From IMG/VR virus record IMGVR_UViG_2541047745_000011, positions 1 through 43,359 of that record: a stretch of 43,359 nucleotides of DNA. One strand, 5' to 3'. The notes below the pieces were generated by a model. That model was not told the origin of the DNA and ran no database searches. It saw only the letters and a list, made by a program, of their open reading frames with translations. The position numbers and the translations under genes were made by a program. This stretch comes from a virus. Its lineage: Duplodnaviria > Heunggongvirae > Uroviricota > Caudoviricetes. This document shows positions 1,295 through 43,359 of this stretch, one piece after another (the first letter of the stretch is position 1; each line of letters opens with the position of its first letter).

Positions 1295-3415
1295 TCATTT
1301 CACCACCCAACCAGAATTCCAGCGACCTGATTCTTTGATGTAGAGTCTTCCATTTACGATATCTCGATACTCGCTTCCAGGTGTGGCTATTTGTACTCCT
1401 TCAGGATTTCCAGTGCCAGCAATTATACTGTAACTAACGTCTGTGGCTAAATTCCTAACAATGTTAGCAGGAGGGTAAACGTTATCTGCAACAATAATAT
1501 TTGAGCAACTTGCTGTTACATCTACAAAAAACTCATTGCTTATCGAGTTGTGATAACAGTTGTTACTAATCACACCATTTTTAGCAGATGAATCAATACC
1601 TATAACTGCGTCTCCAGCTACAGATTCAAATGAATTTGATGTCACAGTGAATCCGTGGCATTCGCAGTTAATATGGACAGCTCTTCTTCCGTTCATTGCT
1701 GTATTACCTACAATTGATATGTTTCTACTTAACAAAGTTCCTTTGTATTCGCCATCATCCTCAAATATATAGAATATCGCCTTAGCCGTATCAACTTTAT
1801 TGTTGCTTGCAATCACATTAGCAATGTAATTCCCTCTAAGGAATATCCCATTACATGAATCGACTGTGTTTCCAGTGATGGAAACTCCGTCAACCCATCT
1901 CATATCAAGAATGGAGCCATCACAGGACTCAAAATTATTTCCTGATATCCTCCAGTCTCTGTGAAATATTCTACTACCTTCCAATCCGCTCTCAATAAAT
2001 GTTGGTGTAAGGCATGATATCACAGAATTTCCAGTGCAATTTTTAAATGTATTATGATGTATACACACATCTCTTGATGTTTCCCGAAGAGTTGTGCTTA
2101 CTTTCCTCCCGGTAAATATTATTGCTGGATTAGTGAAATTTATAAATGTGTTTGAACCAATGTCAACATTTTCCCACCTAGAAAAGCCACGAATGCCAGA
2201 ATAAGAATTACCATCAAAAGTACAATGGTGGATTTTTATATCAATAACTGGCTGCGCTCCATCTGTTGAACCGTGATTCCCTACGCCAACAGCCCATGAC
2301 GGTAGAGATTCTGACGGTCCAAAATAACAACCAGACACTTTAATGCTAGCGATATTATCATTGCTGGACAATGGTGTTTCAATCTGAATAGCATCTGAAA
2401 AACCTCTGTTACCTGCCCAATCCATAAACCCCATAAAACGGCAGTTTTCAATATTAACATTTCTCACGCGAGACAAGTCTATAGCATGCGCCCCTGAAAC
2501 ATTAAGGAATGTGCAATCCCGAAATATAATCCCATTAGTAAAAACAAATTCAAATATACTGGCTTGGTTTTTGTATATATTGCCATTGTTATTAAAAACA
2601 CCACCAAATACAGATATATTATTACCACATTCGACTTCAGATGTGTATATGCAAGCAAATGTATTTACACCTGTGTCTGAATTATCAAAAGCACGAATAA
2701 TAGTTGCACCTCGTAGATGTAAACTTGTGTTTGAGTATATCATTATTTTTTTTGTTATTTTTATAAGCCATTCACTACGAAAGGTTAAATTCAAACATCC
2801 GTTTATCTTTGCGATATTTAAAGCATTCTGTAAGGCATCGCTATCGTCGCTTACACCATCACCTGTAACCCCAAACCATGACGGTGAAACCTCATTCCCG
2901 TAAACCCTCTTCCACCTTCTACCGTTAAAACCTACAAGAATTGTTCCGTCATTATCTTCTGATGTCGTATCTGTTGGGTCAGCATAGAACACCCCATCAC
3001 CGCCATCGAACAAATTATTTCTTCCATAACAGATTATTTTGTCATTTGTGCCATTATATGAACGTATGTCTGTATAATTACCACCTCCTAAATACGATAC
3101 CCCGTCAATCTGATTTAGTTTCTGCTGAAACATGTCTGGATCATACTTCAGCACATTAGGAAAATAGAATTGCTGCGCTCCATACGCATCATATACAGCC
3201 ATAGAATGGCCTTGCACGGTTACGAATTTGGCAATCTGTCCGTTATATACCGGATATCCAGCAGCGTTAATGATGATTGGTTGCGAAACAGGGATGTGAG
3301 AACCGTCTTCGTTCTCCACATAAACCTGAATCTGGTTTTCAGGATTTACCGGGTCAGTGTCAATTTTACCGATATAAATTTTGCCATTAGCTACGGCTTT
3401 AAAAGAACGCGCCAT
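1295..3415 (-). CDS. Tailspike protein body (706 codons), P22/Sf6-type head-binding N-domain plus beta-helix receptor-binding domain; native first 18 codons separated by IS1
   Basis: N-terminus [40 protein letters not shown] matches residues ~19-60 of P22 gp9 / Sf6 tailspike; remainder is Asn/Ser/Thr-rich, beta-helix-like. Upstream of the ATG is the IS1 end, not a native RBS. Confidence 0.85.
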
Positions 3416-3432
3416 AGGGTAATGACTCCAAC

Positions 3433-3936
3433 TTATTGATAGTGTTTTATGTTCAGATAATGCCCGATGACTTTGTCATGCAGCTCCACCGATTTTGAGA
3501 ACGACAGCGACTTCCGTCCCAGCCGTGCCAGGTGCTGCCTCAGATTCAGGTTATGCCGCTCAATTCGCTGCGTATATCGCTTGCTGATTACGTGCAGCTT
3601 TCCCTTCAGGCGGGATTCATACAGCGGCCAGCCATCCGTCATCCATATCACCACGTCAAAGGGTGACAGCAGGCTCATAAGACGCCCCAGCGTCGCCATA
3701 GTGCGTTCACCGAATACGTGCGCAACAACCGTCTTCCGGAGCCTGTCATACGCGTAAAACAGCCAGCGCTGGCGCGATTTAGCCCCGACGTATCCCCACT
3801 GTTCGTCCATTTCCGCGCAGACGATGACGTCACTGCCCGGCTGTATGCGCGAGGTTACCGACTGCGGCCTGAGTTTTTTAAATGGCGGAAAATCGTGTTG
3901 AGGCCAACGCCCATAATGCGGGCGGTTGCCCGGCAT
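3433..3936 (-). CDS. insB: IS1 transposase InsB reading frame
   Basis: Translation [25 protein letters not shown]...[12 protein letters not shown] matches IS1 InsB. Confidence 0.9.
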
Positions 3937-4130
3937 CCAACGCCATTCATGGCCATATCAATGATTTTCTGGTGCGTACCGGGTTGAGAAGCGGTGTAAG
4001 TGAACTGCAGTTGCCATGTTTTACGGCAGTGAGAGCAGAGATAGCGCTGATGTCCGGCGGTGCTTTTGCCGTTACGCACCACCCCGTCAGTAGCTGAACA
4101 GGAGGGACAGCTGATAGAAACAGAAGCCAC
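3855..4130 (-). CDS. insA: IS1 InsA
   Basis: Translation [42 protein letters not shown]... matches IS1 InsA. Confidence 0.9.
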
Positions 4131-4185
4131 TGGAGCACCTCAAAAACATCATCATACACTAAATCAGTAAGTTGGCAGCATCACC

Positions 4186-4245
4186 CGCCATAGTGAAAAG
4201 TTGCGAAGGCATACTCACTACAACATTGGCTGTAATGTCTGTCAT
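4186..4245 (-). pseudogene. Tailspike 5' fragment (native codons 1-20) cut off by IS1
   Basis: Minus-strand translation from ATG at 4245: MTDITANVVVSMPSQLFTMA, then runs into IS1 and stops after 8 IS-encoded codons; matches P22 gp9 N-terminus MTDITANVVVSNPRPIFTE. In frame with the 1295-3415 body once IS1 and one duplication copy are removed. Confidence 0.85.
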
Positions 4246-4313
4246 TTAATTTGCTCCAGATACAAGGAATCGCCGCAGCATTGCCACAGTGATGCATTAT
4301 TAATCAAACAAAG

Positions 4314-4328
4314 AGACCACTGTGGTCT
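4314..4328. promoter_or_regulatory. Perfect 15-bp palindrome AGACCAC-T-GTGGTCT, candidate Mnt operator overlapping divergent promoters
   Basis: Symmetric site midway between the mnt start (4392, +) and the native tailspike start (4245, -); P22 Mnt binds a palindromic operator in the equivalent position. Confidence 0.4.
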
Positions 4329-4391
4329 TATTGAGGATGCAACCAGCAGATAATAAGATGCCGATCCACTCACAAAAGCGAGGCATCAAGA

Positions 4392-4643
4392 ATGGGAAGA
4401 GATGACCCGCAATTTAATCTGCGGCTACCTTACGAATTAAAGGAAAAACTAAAACAGCGAGCCAAATCCAATGGCCGCTCTCTTAATTCAGAATTAGTTC
4501 AGATAGTGACTGATGCTGTATCAAAGCCATCCAAAATTTCAGGCTATCGAGACGATGCGGAACGCATCGCTGATGAGCAGTCCGAACTTGTTAAGAAGAT
4601 GGTGTTTGATACGCTGAAGGATTTGTACAAAAAACCCACCTGA
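4392..4643 (+). CDS. mnt: Mnt repressor (ribbon-helix-helix, Arc/Mnt family)
   Basis: 83 aa, MGRDDPQFNLRLPYELKEKLKQRAKSNGRSLNSELVQIV...ELVKKMVFDTLKDLYKK closely matches P22 Mnt; GAGG RBS upstream. Confidence 0.9.
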   Translation: MGRDDPQFNLRLPYELKEKLKQRAKSNGRSLNSELVQIVTDAVSKPSKISGYRDDAERIADEQSELVKKMVFDTLKDLYKKPT

Positions 4644-4660
4644 TGGTGGGTTCCATTTAT
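4635..4660. terminator. Bidirectional rho-independent terminator between convergent mnt and lipoprotein genes
   Basis: CCCACC-tgat-GGTGGG hairpin with A-run on one side and T-rich tract on the other; overlaps the mnt stop codon. Confidence 0.5.
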
Positions 4661-5079
4661 TAGTCGTGCTTTGTTGACGGTATAAGGGATGCATTTGCCT
4701 CTTTAGGCTTCAAGGTATACATCCCACCATTAAATGGATCTACAGCAAGCCAACCAATTAACCCACCAAACACAAGGTTTCCACCAATATACCAACCATT
4801 AGCATTGGCTTTGATTGGCAGGGTAACTGGTTCGTACCCATCCTTCTCCATAGTGATCTGGTAGCTCTTTTTGCCAAAATAACTACCATCTGACTTGGCA
4901 AGAGTTACTCCTTGCGGGGTCTTACCTTGCGCAACAATCACGCCTGATTCGTCTTTTACCTTAAAGCTCGCACCGGAAGGATTGCTGTTCACTTGCACAA
5001 GCTGTGTTTCGTCACCAACAATAGTTGCGCACCCAGATAACAATATAGCGCCAGCAACGACGCCGATAATCCTCTTCAT
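4660..5079 (-). CDS. Lipoprotein of unknown function (accessory gene in sieA-equivalent locus)
   Basis: 139 aa; signal peptide with lipobox LLSGC; Gly-rich C-terminal region; sits where P22 carries sieA, between gene 16 and mnt. Confidence 0.6.
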   Translation of the reverse strand: MKRIIGVVAGAILLSGCATIVGDETQLVQVNSNPSGASFKVKDESGVIVAQGKTPQGVTLAKSDGSYFGKKSYQITMEKDGYEPVTLPIKANANGWYIGGNLVFGGLIGWLAVDPFNGGMYTLKPKEANASLIPSTKHD

Positions 5080-5213
5080 ATTACTTTCCGTTTTGTTAGA
5101 ATCAGAAAGATCTTAATAATAAAAAGTATTTTCGTGAAGATATTGTCGATTGAGTTAATAACTCATTTACACCCAACAGTGCCATGATGGCAAAGATAAG
5201 GAGAGTTAATCAT

Positions 5214-5699
5214 ATGAAAAAATCACTGTTAATTATCCCGCTTCTGCTGGCAGGGTGTGCAAAGGTTAGCGACTATCAGGCAAGTTGCGAACAACGCTAT
5301 CCAAAGCTTAGCGATATGGCTAATTGCCTTGATGCTAGCGTGAAGAGCGACTCACGCATGGCATCAGCACCAACACCTAAGTTATATGTCCTTGCTGCGA
5401 AGATGCTCGGGCAAGGTGTCGATGATGGCAAGATAAGTGACGCGCAGGCAAGACTTGAGCTTCAGAATCTTTATGTTCAATTACAAAGCCAAGAACAAGC
5501 CCAACAAATAGCACAAAGCCAAGCATTCCAGCAGGCTTTATTGAATTATCAGGCTGTAAACACAATGCAAGCTATCGAGCAAAAAGCGCGCCAGCCTGTT
5601 ATAACTCAACCTTACCCAACACGCGTTGACACTTACACAAACTGCAATTCAGGGTTTGGAAATACAGTCACATGCAACAGTAGCAGTAACATCAGATAA
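5214..5699 (+). CDS. Lipoprotein of unknown function, Gln-rich (divergent from 4660-5079)
   Basis: Start chosen at ATG 5214 (MKKSLLIIPLLLAGCAK, lipobox LAGC) with AAGGAGAG RBS at 5198-5205; track ORF begins at 5184. Confidence 0.6.
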   Translation: MKKSLLIIPLLLAGCAKVSDYQASCEQRYPKLSDMANCLDASVKSDSRMASAPTPKLYVLAAKMLGQGVDDGKISDAQARLELQNLYVQLQSQEQAQQIAQSQAFQQALLNYQAVNTMQAIEQKARQPVITQPYPTRVDTYTNCNSGFGNTVTCNSSSNIR

Positions 5700-5789: not shown

Positions 5790-7787
5790 CTATTCTGACA
5801 ACGCATCAGACTTAGCCCCCTGAGTAAGGGCGTTAATGGCCTTTTGCGCCTGCTGCATGGCTTTCTCAAACGCTGTTGATCCGCGTGGGGTGTTTGCCAT
5901 TCGGAGCATTGCATTTCTGAATGGCTCGCTCTCATAGGCGCGAGTAAGAAGTCCGTAGCTTACTGCTGCGCCAGTTGTAGCCGGGTTCATTGCCGTCCCA
6001 TACCCAATTATGAACGGGATAGTTTGCTGCCCTGTGGGTGTTGTTACTGCCGCTTTTGCAGCCTGCTGCGTGGATTGCAGGTAGTTTTTTAATCCTTTCA
6101 GATAAGCAGCGTCCTGCCCCTTAAATGTGATGCCAGTCTGGTTTTGCAGGATGTTAAGCTGCCGAAGGAACTGGTCAGGGGATCCGCCAGATTTCTCCAT
6201 CGCCTTTCCAATGATGCCATTGCGCATTTGCGTCCTGCCAACACGACCAACTGAGTTATACAGAGTCTTAATTTCCGATTTGTTCTTGCTGAATAGCATG
6301 TTGTTGACAACTTCCGGCGTCAGGTCGCCTTTCATGAGAACATTCTTCAGCCTGGTATTCTTTAGTTTCGCCGCTTCGTCAGCGTAGACGGCATTGGCCT
6401 GCTGATATTTACGGAGAGTATCGTTGCCAAGATTCTGACCAATGGCACCATTGATATCGTCGGTCATTGCCTTGTAAACGCGCTGAATGGCAGCATCGGA
6501 ACGGTTTGGTAACACTGGTCGCTCACCTTTCACGTCCATTCTGAACTGGCTGCGCAGGTCGCTTAATTGCTTCAAATCCAGATTTACCGGACCATCAGGA
6601 CCAGCATTGCGAACAAGTTCATCACGATATGATTGAAGTTTTGAAATAGTCTCGTTATCAGCAACCTTACCAAGCTTCTGCAGGTTAGATATCTCAGTAT
6701 CAATCTGCTGAATTGCTCGCGCAGGCTGGATATTGACTCCCGCCATTGCATTCTGAACCTGCTCAAGACGGTTCCCTGCAGCACGACGAATTCCTGATGT
6801 TTTCGCTTTAAGGCTGTCAATAACAACAGCTGGATCATACTCCCCGAATTTATTGGCAAATCTCTGCACCAACTGGCTTCTCGCTTCCTGTTGCGTTGCT
6901 CTCATTCCGCTTGTGCCAGCCAGAGGGATATTTTCTGCTGTAGTCTGCGCCATTTTTCCGACGCGGGAAGTAGGTTGTAACAGGTCCGTGGTGTGCAGAG
7001 GAACTCCTTCACGCTCTGCAAATCTGATAGCCTGCTGCGCTTCTGGCGCAATAGCACCGCGAACGCCACGATAAGCAGCACCTAATCCACGTCCAGCAGC
7101 GTTAATAGCACCGCCAGCCAGCACACCAACGCCTAAATCGGTGGCGAGGGCTTCCGCATCATCTTTCGCACTATTTGCAGCAAGTGATCCAACTGCGTTT
7201 TCTGCGAGAAGTCGTGTTGCCCCCTGAGCAATTCGACCAGCAAGTGTTGGTGCCTGTGCCGCCGCTCTCTCAACGCCAGCAGGAGTGAGGTAAGGCAATG
7301 CTTCAGCAAATACCCTTCCCTCTGTCGTTTGTGGAGTCAGCGCGCCTTGCTGAAGGCCAAAGTCCTGCTCTAATCCCTGCGTTGTTACTCGTGGCGCTGG
7401 TTGATATGTACCATCGCCAATGCCGAGTTTACCGCCAGCCCAAGCCGCCGCGCTTGTTACAGCATCTGCAACTGATGCAGGTATGTTTGCCACGTTCACG
7501 CCAGCCTGCACCAGTCCGCGACCAGTCTCTTTCACTGCTTCACCAAGATCAGACATAAATCCACTTTGCTGTGGTTGTTGCTGTGCTACTGGTTGCTGTG
7601 TATCCACTGGCTGCACAGATGGCAATGGATAGGCAGCATAGAAAGCTTGCTTAGCCTGCTCTGCATTTTCTCCGGCTTGCGGGGCCACGACTTCATTGAA
7701 GTATTGCTCCTGAGCCTGCGCTTTTTGTTCTGGTGCTAACGCCTGATACTGTGGAGAGGCGATAACATCTTTCCATGCTTTAGCCAT
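5790..7787 (-). CDS. Ejection (injection) protein, P22 gp16-like
   Basis: 665 aa, Ala/Gln/Gly-rich; last gene of the ejection-protein block in P22 gene order 14-7-20-16. Confidence 0.7.
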   Translation of the reverse strand: MAKAWKDVIASPQYQALAPEQKAQAQEQYFNEVVAPQAGENAEQAKQAFYAAYPLPSVQPVDTQQPVAQQQPQQSGFMSDLGEAVKETGRGLVQAGVNVANIPASVADAVTSAAAWAGGKLGIGDGTYQPAPRVTTQGLEQDFGLQQGALTPQTTEGRVFAEALPYLTPAGVERAAAQAPTLAGRIAQGATRLLAENAVGSLAANSAKDDAEALATDLGVGVLAGGAINAAGRGLGAAYRGVRGAIAPEAQQAIRFAEREGVPLHTTDLLQPTSRVGKMAQTTAENIPLAGTSGMRATQQEARSQLVQRFANKFGEYDPAVVIDSLKAKTSGIRRAAGNRLEQVQNAMAGVNIQPARAIQQIDTEISNLQKLGKVADNETISKLQSYRDELVRNAGPDGPVNLDLKQLSDLRSQFRMDVKGERPVLPNRSDAAIQRVYKAMTDDINGAIGQNLGNDTLRKYQQANAVYADEAAKLKNTRLKNVLMKGDLTPEVVNNMLFSKNKSEIKTLYNSVGRVGRTQMRNGIIGKAMEKSGGSPDQFLRQLNILQNQTGITFKGQDAAYLKGLKNYLQSTQQAAKAAVTTPTGQQTIPFIIGYGTAMNPATTGAAVSYGLLTRAYESEPFRNAMLRMANTPRGSTAFEKAMQQAQKAINALTQGAKSDALSE

Positions 7788-9181
7788 TAATCACCCCATA
7801 GTGAAGAAAAGTTACTGCTGGCTGCTGGCTGTGATACCTGTGCAGGTTGAGATTGCTGCCGCTGAGATTTACCAACATTAACGTTATATTGTTGGTTGTA
7901 ATTGTTGGTGTATTCCTGAATCTCACGAATCGACTGCTGCATAGCCTCCGGGCTTGAATAGTCAACCTGCGGCATCCCCTGAAAATACATCTTCGCTTCT
8001 GCAACGGTGTTAATACCACTGGCCCCCATGTCCCTTGCTGCCGCCACACCCTGATTCTGCATTCTGCCCTGAATACGTTGTGCTGAGTTATATAACTGGC
8101 GCTGCTCTTTTCCTGTTAATCGGCTGCGAACATCAGCACCAATTGCCGGGTTACCTGCGCCGCCGGTCATTCCTGTCATGAAATCGAGAGCAGAAGCGTC
8201 TGCATTTGCGATCGCGTCGATATCCTTCTTCATGGCATAGTTTTGTGCTGATGCAGACGATGTTGCAGGCGCTGCGATTGAACTGGCAGGAACGCGAACC
8301 ATATTCCCCTCGTTGTCGATGCCTTCGTAGAACGCATTTGCCCCAGCGCCGTGAAGTTTCCCGCCAACCGTTACAGTTCTGCCATCTGATAACTGAACTG
8401 TACGCTCATCATTCCCAGCGGTTCCTCTTGTTGACGCTCGCTGCATTGCCAAATCCTGCCCGCGTCGCGCAGTAGAAGCAGATAAATCCTGACCGCGCAT
8501 CGTGATGTTCTGACCTCGTGCTGTTAGCGCCTCGCCAGCCTGATTGCTGCGGATTGTCTCTGCAAGTTTTCCGCGATCAATCTCACGCCCAACGATTCTG
8601 TCTTGCGCCTGAAAATATTGTTCTGGACCAAGTGCAGCCATTCCAAGGTGATCAACAAACTCTGTGAAACCTTGTGGATTTTGCTGATACATTTTCGCCA
8701 CATCCAGAGGGTCTACTCCGGCACGAGTAAGCTCAGATGAGTTGTTCTGCAACCATGACATCATGGCTTCTGGAGATGAAGCTGCCAGTCTGGCACTTGC
8801 TGCCAGTGTGCCGACAGTGGAACGCTGGTCTTCATCGACAAATTTCATGCCGTTTCTTACAGCGTCAAACTGCTCAGGATACTGTGATGCCAGTTTTCGC
8901 ATTGCATCGCGGTCACCAGATGTATATGCATCAGCATAAGCCTGCTGAAACTCTTGCTGTCGCTTCTGCTGATCCATCTGCTTATACATATCCATGACAG
9001 ATGAAATGCCCTGCAAAGCCTGCAAGCCAACGTTATTACGTCCTGAACGCTCCATCTCGTTATTCTGTCGAATGTATGCAAGCGTGGCGTCTGCATCACT
9101 TGCTCTTGGAGCGTTGGAGTTCATGCCGCCTAACCCGGCAAGAAGCGCGCCTGAATTACCAGCCTGTTGCCATGTAGCCAA
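7787..9181 (-). CDS. Ejection protein, P22 gp20-like
   Basis: 464 aa; position and size match P22 gp20 (471 aa). Confidence 0.65.
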
Positions 9182-42111: not shown

Positions 42112-43359
42112 TTATATTGCTGAAGGTACTGGCGTTTCCATCACTATTTGCTCACGTTTTTTACTCAGGAAGAAAATGCCAAATAGCAACATCAGGCAGA
42201 CAATACCCGAAATTGCGAAAAAAACCGTCTGGTAGCCTGCGTGGTCAAAGAGTATCCCAGTCGGCGTTGAAAGCAGCACAATCCCCAACGAACTGGCAAT
42301 TTGAAAACCAATCAGAAAGATCGTCGACGACAGGCGCTTATCAAAATTTGCCACGCTGTATTTGAAGACGGATATGACACAAAGTGGAACCTCAATGGCA
42401 TGTAACAGCTTCACTAATGAAATAATCCAGGGGTTAACGAATAGCGCGCAGGAAAGGATACGCAACGCCATAATCACAACACCGATAAGTAATGCATTTT
42501 TTGGCCCTACCCGATTCACAAAGAAAGGAATAATCGCCATGCACAGCGCTTCGAGTACCACCTGGAATGAGTTGAGATAACCATACAGGCGCGTTCCTAC
42601 ATCGTGGGATTCGAATAAACCTGCATAAAAGACAGGAAAGAGTTGTTGATCAAAAATGTTATAGAAAGACCACGTCCCCACAATAAATATGACGAAAACC
42701 CAGAAGTTTCGATCCTTGAAAACTGCGATAAAATCCTCTTTTTTTACCCCTCCCACATCCGCCGCTACGCACTGGTGTTCCTGCTCTTTAAAACGCATGT
42801 TGATCATCATAAATACAGCGCCAAATAGAGAGACCAACCAGAAGTTGATATGGGGACTGATACTAAAAAATATGCCAGCAAAGAATGCGCCAATAGCATA
42901 GCCAAAAGATCCCCAGGCGCGCGCTGTTCCATATTCGAAATGAAAATTTCGCGCCATTTTTTCGGTGAAGCTGTCAAGCAAACCGCATCCCGCCAGATAC
43001 CCCAGACCAAAAAAGAGCGCCCCCAGAATTAAACCTACAGAAAAATTGCTTTGCAGTAACGGTTCATAAACGTAAATCATAAACGGTCCGGTCAAGACCA
43101 AGATGAAACTCATACACCAGATGAGCGGTTTCTTCAGACCGAGTTTATCCTGAACGATGCCGTAGAACATCATAAATAGAATGCTGGTAAACTGGTTGAC
43201 CGAATAAAGTGTACCTAATTCCGTCCCTGTCAACCCTAGATGTCCTTTCAGCCAAATAGCGTATAATGACCACCACAGCGACCAGGAAATAAAAAAGAGA
43301 AATGAGTAACTGGATGCAAAACGATAGTACGCATTTCTGAATGGAATATTCAGTGCCAT
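42112..43359 (-). CDS. cscB: Sucrose:H+ symporter CscB (LacY-family MFS permease), host chromosomal gene
   Basis: 415 aa, MALNIPFRNAYYRFASSYSFLFFISWSLWWSLYAIWLKG..., 12 predicted TM helices; ATG at window end. Confidence 0.8.
   Translation of the reverse strand: MALNIPFRNAYYRFASSYSFLFFISWSLWWSLYAIWLKGHLGLTGTELGTLYSVNQFTSILFMMFYGIVQDKLGLKKPLIWCMSFILVLTGPFMIYVYEPLLQSNFSVGLILGALFFGLGYLAGCGLLDSFTEKMARNFHFEYGTARAWGSFGYAIGAFFAGIFFSISPHINFWLVSLFGAVFMMINMRFKEQEHQCVAADVGGVKKEDFIAVFKDRNFWVFVIFIVGTWSFYNIFDQQLFPVFYAGLFESHDVGTRLYGYLNSFQVVLEALCMAIIPFFVNRVGPKNALLIGVVIMALRILSCALFVNPWIISLVKLLHAIEVPLCVISVFKYSVANFDKRLSSTIFLIGFQIASSLGIVLLSTPTGILFDHAGYQTVFFAISGIVCLMLLFGIFFLSKKREQIVMETPVPSAI

Follow-up and report, generated by a model that had tools for sequence, protein, structure and literature searches.

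An mnt-only unit with a putative class-specific operator beside the tailspike gene of a P22-like prophage

What is an mnt gene for when arc and ant, its partners in the immI region of phage P22, are missing and the tailspike gene is its neighbour? The question is raised by a P22-like (Lederbergvirus) prophage with its late genes on the minus strand, analysed here over a stretch of 43,359 nucleotides (hereafter, the window). An earlier note on this DNA had described mnt next to the tailspike start and had offered two explanations, namely that Mnt was rewired to regulate tailspike transcription, or that the locus is a deletion scar. Judging from homology, feature positions, protein-site covariation, selection and the loss of the ant promoter, we consider it probable that the locus is an ordinary mnt-only immI region, or "ant moron", of a P22-like prophage. 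Mnt, its class-specific operator and its promoter would form an intact autoregulated unit, with the DNA-injection genes on one side and on the other the tailspike gene, which Mnt would adjoin only because arc and ant are missing.

The mnt gene and its surroundings

The product of the mnt ORF matched the Pfam families PF03869 Arc (2.8e-22, residues 3-50) and PF11423 Repressor_Mnt (2.2e-18, residues 53-80), and the PDB entries 1MNT (2.8e-34) and 1QEY, the tetramerisation domain (3e-12, 28/31 residues identical). Its identity to P22 Mnt was 76% (tblastn). Both marks of the P22 Mnt family were found: the N-terminal Arc-like ribbon-helix-helix domain is present, and the C-terminal coiled-coil tetramerisation domain is predicted from the Pfam and PDB matches. 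On these matches we classify the 83-aa protein as a true Mnt and not an Arc, and the presence of mnt claimed in the earlier note is confirmed. The recognition strand reads DPQFNLR, and the protein is a mosaic, with residues 1-45 like those of phage L (38/45) and residues 46-83 like those of P22 (32/38).

The features of the region are collected in Table 1. A two-way hairpin terminator overlaps the mnt stop codon and is common to the converging gene at 4660-5079; in phage epsilon34, a terminator is annotated at the equivalent place. This converging gene and the small gene at 5184-5699 are divergently oriented and come after the homologues of P22 genes 20 and 16.

Table 1. Features of the mnt-tailspike region, in positions of the window
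Feature	Position	Strand	Basis and remarks
P22 gene 20 homologue	7787-9181		
P22 gene 16 homologue	5790-7787		
Small gene	5184-5699	+	
Small gene	4660-5079	-	Product starts with a lipoprotein-like signal sequence
Two-way hairpin terminator, AACCCACC-TGAT-GGTGGGTT	4633-4652	.	Terminator scan
mnt	4392-4643	+	ORF, 83 aa; N-terminal ribbon-helix-helix DNA-binding domain and C-terminal Mnt tetramerisation helix
mnt Shine-Dalgarno, GAGG	4380-4383	+	8 nt before ATG; read from sequence
Degenerate counterpart of the P22 ant promoter, TCGGCA (4364-4359), 16 nt, TTGCAT (4342-4337)	4337-4364	-	Aligned by "ctcaata" and operator register; weight-matrix score 1.3
Predicted mnt promoter, -35 TTGAGG (4331-4336), 17-nt spacer, -10 TAAGAT (4354-4359)	4331-4359	+	Weight-matrix score 11.7
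Putative Mnt operator, "Q class", AGACCAC-T-GTGGTCT (AGACCACTGTGGTCT)	4314-4328	.	Perfect palindrome, 7+1+7; P22 Omnt register
Tailspike leader hairpin, CTGTGGC-AAT-GCTGCGG	4273-4289	-	RNAalifold on 8 phages: 7 pairs, 4 with compensatory changes
Native tailspike 5' end, codons 1-20, MTDITANVVVSMPSQLFTMA	4186-4245	-	Pfam Head_binding positions 1-20; tblastn with P22 gp9
IS1, 768 bp, complete, insA and insB	3418-4185	-	Pfam IS1 transposase domains; ends read from sequence
Tailspike body downstream of IS1, 706 aa	1295-3415	-	ORF; Pfam Head_binding 1e-54, profile positions 20-112

The earlier note had found no room for arc or ant, and their absence was borne out. In tblastn searches of the window, P22 Arc and Ant matched nothing except mnt, and Ant gave nothing below E=0.08. 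Five small ORFs lie in or overlap the spacer between mnt and the tailspike start, and none had a Pfam match even at E<=10. A hidden arc-like ORF in the spacer is ruled out by these Pfam searches and by the tblastn search, in which Arc matched mnt alone. The search for sar RNA or any other Rfam family gave no match, and no Arc-operator-like sequence was seen in the spacer. The window therefore differs from a complete P22-type immI (mnt-arc-ant) in having neither arc nor ant, no strong ant promoter, no Arc operator and no sar. What characterises an mnt-only ant moron was found instead: mnt alone represents immI, has the gene 16 homologue on one side and the tailspike gene on the other, and is transcribed away from the latter.

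The native tailspike gene starts at 4245-4243 on the minus strand, with a Shine-Dalgarno sequence, GGAG, at 4257-4254. The last ~50 bp before its ATG are homologous to P22, leader hairpin included; since P22 has the hairpin too, we count it as part of the tailspike gene rather than of mnt. A complete IS1, flanked by the 8-bp target duplication CTATGGCG at 3410-3417 and 4186-4193, splits the gene after codon 20, 60 nt into it, so that the native start is parted from the 706-aa body, whose ORF has its new start at Met19, within the duplicated target. None of 5,426 complete E. coli genomes had this IS1-tailspike junction.

The palindrome and the Mnt operator of P22

The spacer (4246-4391) is 146 bp long and holds the perfect AGACCAC-T-GTGGTCT palindrome, both as given in the earlier note. 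The centre of the palindrome (4321) lies 71 nt before the mnt ATG. An equally good palindrome occurred in 0.7% of shuffles of the 146-bp spacer (2.3% with loops of 0-3 allowed), and only 5 palindromes this good were found in the whole 43 kb.

The earlier note had suggested a comparison with P22 Omnt, which turned out to have the same position and register, with half-sites that differ at +/-5 and +/-7. P22 reads ...ctcaat-AGGTCCACgGTGGACCT, and the window reads ...ctcaat-aAGACCACaGTGGTCT. Oriented alike, the two sites are tatattctcaat-AGGTCCAC-g-GTGGACCT-gtattg in P22 and gcatcctcaat-aAGACCAC-a-GTGGTCT-ctttg in the window. In both, TATTGAG, which carries the -35 of the mnt promoter, borders the site on the mnt side, the distance from its centre to the -35 TTGAG is 11 nt, and the site ends 3 bp before this -35. 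Because the flank "ctcaata" and the distance to the mnt -35 are the same, we identify the palindrome as the positional homologue of the P22 Mnt operator, belonging to a second specificity class. A dyad operator of this kind, whose half-sites are spaced by roughly one turn of the helix and which directly precedes the mnt promoter, is the arrangement of the Mnt family. No second Mnt operator was found within 3 mismatches elsewhere in the 43-kb window.

Two other roles for the palindrome were considered and rejected. One was that of an intrinsic terminator of late transcription: the window copy is flagged by the minus-strand scan, but phage L and other variants have no T-rich tail. An alternative RNA fold specific to the window, pairing the operator with 4282-4291, had a z-score of only -2.0 and was not conserved.

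The assignment to a second class was examined in a survey of Mnt-operator pairs at more than 170 loci, drawn from IMG/VR (by a protein-guided scan and an extended-operator scan), from GTDB genomes and from named phages. All DPQFNLR Mnt proteins surveyed came with GACCAC-N-GTGGTC, its centre 71 nt ahead of the ATG. With all DPHFNFR proteins surveyed, the site was GGTCCAC-N-GTGGACC, its centre 66-70 nt ahead of the ATG, except in four L077-type contigs, which do not have this operator. In a third class, the strand (Y)DEAQFHLRL ((Y)SKYDEAQFHLRL) is paired with ATACC-N5-GGTAC, and in an E. coli prophage of strain CH4794, EDPQFKLRL is paired with GAACCAC-C-GTGGTTC. Recognition strand and half-site thus covary across four classes in the loci surveyed.

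Compared with the P22 strand, A-R-D-D-P-H-F-N-F-R-M-P, that of the window reads G-R-D-D-P-Q-F-N-L-R-L-P, and the half-site GTGGACC of P22 is GTGGTCT in the window, with A and T swapped at +/-5 and a further difference at +/-7. According to work attributed to Knight and Sauer (1989, 1992), Mnt residues 2, 6, 8 and 10 reportedly contact the operator; on that account, the only contact residue changed would be residue 6, from His to Gln. With its changes relative to P22 Mnt, the PQFNLR of the window strand is identical to the strand of Arc.

Conservation within the class was assessed on 39 distinct Q-class upstream sequences. The operator arms were conserved in 80-90% or more of them, and the central base was C in 12, A in 11, G in 9 and T in 7. 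Conserved arms around a free centre are typical of a symmetric protein-binding site whose centre is not contacted. The Q-class operator, with half-site GTGGTC(T), would be matched by the DPQFNLR Mnt, which has Gln in place of His6 of P22, and, its tetramerisation helix being intact, the window Mnt most likely binds the palindrome as a tetramer. Within P22-like phages, operator class and orphan state are perfectly linked, which may be due in part to common descent and not to function, a point against our preferred reading. Natural Mnt/operator classes that carry His6 or Gln6 and differ in the half-site at +/-5 and +/-7 extend the classic model of DNA recognition by a beta-strand.

Distribution, selection and transcription into the tailspike gene

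The tailspike 5' end, the spacer and mnt were found by blastn as a contiguous block in many phage records, where mnt and tailspike are annotated as neighbours. Over the region, nucleotide identity was 99% to Escherichia phage vB_EcoP-720R6 and 98% to Gally; Salmonella phages with the block include ST160, SE1, SPN9CC, L, ST64T, ST104 and others. It was present in 40 of the 5,426 complete E. coli genomes, LF82 among them. More distant orphan mnt genes lie by the tailspike gene in Shigella phage Sf101, Salmonella phage VSe13 and Proteus phage Brookers, and further ones beside the tailspike gene in prophages of Providencia and of an Escherichia species. A Serratia locus has the same Mnt class and operator, and no tailspike was detected beside its mnt. 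Altogether, ~80 related contigs have the junction, as have many named phages, the sources being Salmonella, Escherichia, Shigella, Proteus, Providencia and Serratia. The survey of related prophages suggested in the earlier note therefore speaks against its presentation of the locus as unusual. Indeed, the region has been named "ant moron", and its mnt-only type described, by Villafane et al. 2008 (PMC2629481), and the type was described in a second paper by Zaworski et al. (PMC8022706). By sequence comparison, the window locus is this already known mnt-only ant moron, near-identical to that of published phages.

If a recent deletion had taken arc and ant, mnt and its operator would be a functionless remnant left to decay, which is the deletion scar proposed in the earlier note. 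The decay of the ant promoter could be taken in this sense. So could two results on phage Gally in E. coli LF82 (PMC9928086): the deletion of mnt, which was built, did not affect survival in macrophages, and in the RNA-seq data (S1 Table; log2 values) mnt was at 3.7, the prophage background, in LB stationary phase. The same data show mnt at 9.0 after 1 h and at about 8.4 after 6 h in macrophages, a 40-fold induction that does not fit a remnant. Neither does the sequence evolution of the gene. In pairs of orphan mnt genes, dN/dS was 0.07-0.14, thus around 0.1, where dS was computable; elsewhere, synonymous sites were saturated and the protein conserved. These values indicate that orphan mnt is under purifying selection and so functional, and the unit as a whole would have a function for the same reason. 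The ORF was intact in all of the ~150 DPQFNLR copies found, the 148 copies of the set having been gathered by the DPQFNLR motif together with an intact ORF, so that completeness follows from that selection. Further points against a remnant are that conservation extends to the operator arms and the hexamers of the mnt promoter but not to the adjoining sequence or the central base, that the junction is widespread, and that the orphan state is seen in at least three operator classes and in six genera. The ant promoter itself argues against a scar: in P22 it sits on the mnt side of the operator, where a simple arc-ant deletion would have left it, yet it has decayed. We regard the remnant as very improbable.

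Promoters were scored with a sigma-70 weight matrix on both strands of the spacer and of related loci. The predicted mnt promoter had the best score on either strand of the spacer, with a start site predicted near 4366. It corresponds to P22 Pmnt, TTGAGA-17-TATCAT, and its position is kept in all orphan loci, where the -10 ends 30-32 nt before the ATG (32 in the window). In P22, Pant scored 16.7 and Pmnt 14.3, and two other arc-bearing loci were similar. A strong Pant (15-17) was found only in loci with arc and ant; the aligned sequence of the window scored 1.3. No sigma-70 promoter facing the tailspike at a conserved position was found in the orphan loci. The best site on the tailspike strand, TTTTGT-16-TATTAT/TATGAT, scored 5.9 and lies upstream of the operator, at the same position in several variants. 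Since Pmnt is retained, the aligned Pant scores 1.3 and nothing comparable faces the tailspike, selection has kept Mnt, the operator and the mnt promoter, but no strong operator-controlled promoter into the tailspike gene.

With the operator ending 3 bp before the -35, as in P22, Mnt binding would act directly in cis on mnt's own promoter, as a putative autoregulation. Bound Mnt may also hinder any polymerase crossing the operator. The P22 ant promoter, which fires across the operator into arc, ant and gene 9, has not been retained in the window, and for this reason the mnt unit would be no dedicated tailspike switch.

Control of the tailspike by Mnt, the other explanation of the earlier note, would mean that Mnt bound at 4314-4328 either shuts down a weak spacer promoter or stops polymerases that arrive by read-through from prophage-expressed genes upstream, leaving the tailspike low in the lysogen or tuned in dose. 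The geometry allows it, as the operator stands between all upstream transcription and the tailspike start, and an effect of Mnt/Arc on read-through into the tailspike gene has been suggested before (PMC2629481). In Gally (PMC9928086; log2 values), tailspike mRNA was at 3.9 in LB stationary phase and at 6.7 and 7.8 after 1 h and 6 h in macrophages, a rise of ~8- to 15-fold, and the adjacent upstream late gene stayed at 3.6-4.1 throughout. The tailspike mRNA varies independently of the late operon, and some late-operon-independent transcription must therefore reach the Gally tailspike. This transcription may stem from read-through out of gene 14, which is strongly induced, on the same strand and equivalent to the window gene at 4660-5079, or from an unmapped promoter, and Mnt could modulate it; this is a point against our preferred reading of an ordinary mnt-only region. 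So is the weak site facing the tailspike, with its recurrence in several variants.

That site, TTTTGT-16-TATTAT, overlaps the reverse complement of the mnt -10, for which alone it may be conserved, and would put the operator at ~+15 to +29. From the operator to the tailspike leader, the sequence is wholly different among variants, which speaks against tailspike control, as does the loss of the P22-type ant promoter (1.3 versus 16.7). The joint rise of mnt and tailspike in Gally does not look like simple repression; it is the opposite of what repression predicts. Moreover, antiterminated late transcription is not expected to be halted by a bound repressor. We found no sequence support for a rewiring of Mnt to the tailspike, and think such control rather unlikely.

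Possible immunity in trans and comparison with known systems

For the mnt-only unit, the most plausible selected function would be in trans: the Mnt of a prophage may silence the incoming ant module of a phage of the same operator class. An immunity of this kind, compatible with the ordinary mnt-only region preferred here, would act as an "anti-antirepressor", shutting the same-class ant promoter of a superinfecting phage and so sparing the resident C2. Operator classes are discrete and diverse, as expected of immunity specificities. P22, and not L, is said to have immI, and the P22 antirepressor is said to act on the L repressor (findings attributed to Susskind and Botstein, 1978); these P22/L genetics would fit an L Mnt that differs in class from the operator of P22.

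The operator core recurs identically, as GAGACCACCGTGGTCT, in complete mnt-like/arc-like/ant modules that have a strong ant promoter. A scan of viral contigs for the operator turned up seven ES18/SPN3UB-like siphovirus contigs (IMG/VR; L229, L150 and others), with tail genes 82% identical to those of Salmonella phages, in which the core GAGACCACCGTGGTCTTATTG has a DPQFNLR Mnt-like gene on one side and, on the other, a divergent arc-like gene and then ant. Their promoters are divergent; that of the ant operon, TTGACA-17-CATTAT, is strong, and the antirepressor has 322 aa. These modules share operator core and recognition strand with the window, and differ from it in the presence of the arc-like gene and antirepressor, in the longer, different C-terminus of the Mnt-like protein and in their place among siphovirus tail genes. 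By class, a Q-class orphan Mnt would be expected to recognise these ant modules. Other immI-like modules examined, those of SPN3UB, Oslo, 611R6, N7, KP12 and the L077-type contigs, belong to other classes.

Same-class modules were found in IMG/VR contigs only, and none among the 5,426 complete E. coli genomes or named phages; their confinement to metagenomic viral contigs counts against immunity in trans and against our overall reading. The same is true of the low expression of Gally mnt in LB stationary phase, which is odd for a constitutive prophage immunity factor. We therefore propose this immunity as the selected function only tentatively. Still more speculative is a broader picture, in which orphan Mnt would be a stand-alone prophage defence, autoregulated and induced by condition, that shuts same-class antirepressor modules and may also gate late-operon-independent transcription of the tailspike gene. 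If this were true, the discrete Mnt/operator classes would add to the immunity of enterobacterial temperate phages a second layer of specificity that can be exchanged.

Two genome papers left the function of the L/ST64T-type orphan mnt undecided. The present comparison argues that it is functional, because of purifying selection, the co-evolution of operator and protein, and the retention of the mnt promoter where the ant promoter alone was lost. It also points to a concrete and testable role, cross-immunity against antirepressor modules of the same class. The window copy is itself of little weight, being near-identical to a published arrangement in a prophage already disabled by IS elements.

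Among known systems, P22 immI (mnt, Pmnt/Pant, Oarc, Omnt, arc, sar, ant) has in common with the window a homologous two-domain Mnt, the place and register of the operator and the ~50 bp before the tailspike; unlike it, the window is without arc, sar, ant and the Arc operator, and shows a degenerate ant promoter, the half-site GTGGTCT and Gln in place of His6. P22 Arc (MPQFNLRWP) has the same PQFNLR recognition strand as the window Mnt, which differs from Arc in its C-terminal Mnt tetramerisation helix and in its putative site, which has the Mnt-type geometry of 7+1+7 with arms GTGG... and does not resemble the P22 Arc operator ATGATAGAAGCACTCTACTAT. The closest counterpart is the mnt-only moron of L, ST64T, ST104, ST160, SE1, Gally and 720R6. 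As in the window, injection genes are followed by small moron genes, an mnt on the opposite strand and the tailspike gene; the spacer is 135-147 bp long, the GACCAC-N-GTGGTC core lies 71 nt before the mnt ATG, and Mnt has the N-terminus MGRDDPQFNLRLPYEL. The window is set apart from these known morons by the IS1 in its tailspike gene and by the C-terminal half of its Mnt, which is of the P22/epsilon34 type and not of the L type.

Insertions in the prophage and arrangement of the window ends

The tailspike gene of the prophage is interrupted past codon 20 by a complete IS1. The element is flanked by an 8-bp target duplication, CTATGGCG (3410-3417 and 4186-4193), and 3' of it the tailspike reading frame restarts at Met19, within the duplication. 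Of 5,426 complete E. coli genomes, not one carries the junction between IS1 and the tailspike gene. Given the position of the insertion and the absence of its junction from these genomes, the prophage in the window probably cannot make normal tailspikes. The IS21-type transposase pair is a second IS insertion in this prophage; the match of its IstB-like ATPase reached 7.7e-112.

Features located in the window
Feature	Position	Strand or orientation	Description
IS1, complete	3418-4185	same as tailspike gene	interrupts the tailspike gene past codon 20
Leader hairpin CTGTGGC-AAT-GCTGCGG	4273-4289	-	about 28-45 nt before the tailspike ATG
Perfect palindrome TGAGTTAATAACTCA	5151-5165	divergent promoter region	between the genes at 4660-5079 (-) and 5184-5699 (+)
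IS21-type transposase pair, two ORFs	23569-25370	opposite to neighbours	rve integrase core and HTH; IstB-like ATPase

At one end of the window, the integrase gene (1-1158) and the tailspike gene are convergent, and only 136 bp (1159-1294) separate the former from the tailspike 3' end, the order of the circular phage form (attP arrangement). A LacY-type host permease lies at the opposite end (42112-43359), and no integrase adjoins the early-left genes of the window. The prophage may have been rearranged, or the integrase may come from another element.

Mnt and the leaders of mnt and tailspike

The two domains of the Mnt repressor (4392-4643) have different closest relatives. Residues 1-45, the DNA-binding domain, are nearest to phage L (38/45 identities, versus 31/45 for P22), whereas residues 46-83, the tetramerisation domain, are nearest to P22 (32/38, versus 19/38 for L). 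The best nucleotide match also changes partner within the gene. The Mnt of the window is a domain mosaic, and the pattern suggests that recombination took place at the linker joining its domains.

By eye only, an inverted repeat, GATGCC...GGCATC (4358-4363 and 4382-4387), was recognised around the mnt leader, overlapping the Shine-Dalgarno region; it is retained in the Q class (Mnt with recognition strand DPQFNLR and operator GACCAC-N-GTGGTC) and in the YSKYDEAQFHLRL class. In the Proteus phage Brookers, again by eye only, the repeat reads TTTGTC...GACAAA, a change that looks compensatory. The left arm of the window repeat extends into the predicted -10 and may therefore be absent from the mnt mRNA.

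The tailspike leader hairpin is kept in eight phages, P22 among them, with compensatory changes in four of its seven pairs. It is not an obvious terminator, because no T-run follows it.

Expression in Gally and a further palindrome

Gally, the mnt-only prophage of E. coli LF82, is 98% identical to the window over 4183-4700. In published RNA-seq (PMC9928086), its mnt, tailspike and three neighbouring genes rose 6- to 40-fold inside macrophages, while its late operon remained silent. The Gally homologues of the two small genes flanking the perfect palindrome were also up in macrophages, and their prophage expression was second only to that of c2 (PMC9928086, S1 Table). This palindrome may be the operator of some regulator.

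Related loci with possibly replaced tailspikes or complete modules

In the Q-class IMG/VR loci L035, L045, L060-L064 and L069, the usual tailspike start context still lies 146 nt from mnt, and the recognisable tailspike N-terminus, MTNMPNITPNVVIGMPS, starts about 415 nt from mnt, past an inserted segment. With a score of 13.9, the sequence TTGATC-17-TAAAAT in this segment resembles a strong promoter; the tailspike module of these loci may have been replaced by one that carried in its own promoter.

A full module of mnt-like, arc-like and ant genes was found in L229 (5790-6360), and also in L097, L150, L161, L235, L242 and L243, all of them ES18/SPN3UB-like siphovirus contigs. The operator core of the siphovirus module, GAGACCACCGTGGTCT, is identical to the palindrome class of the window; the Mnt-like protein of these contigs has a C-terminus longer than, and different from, that of the window Mnt.
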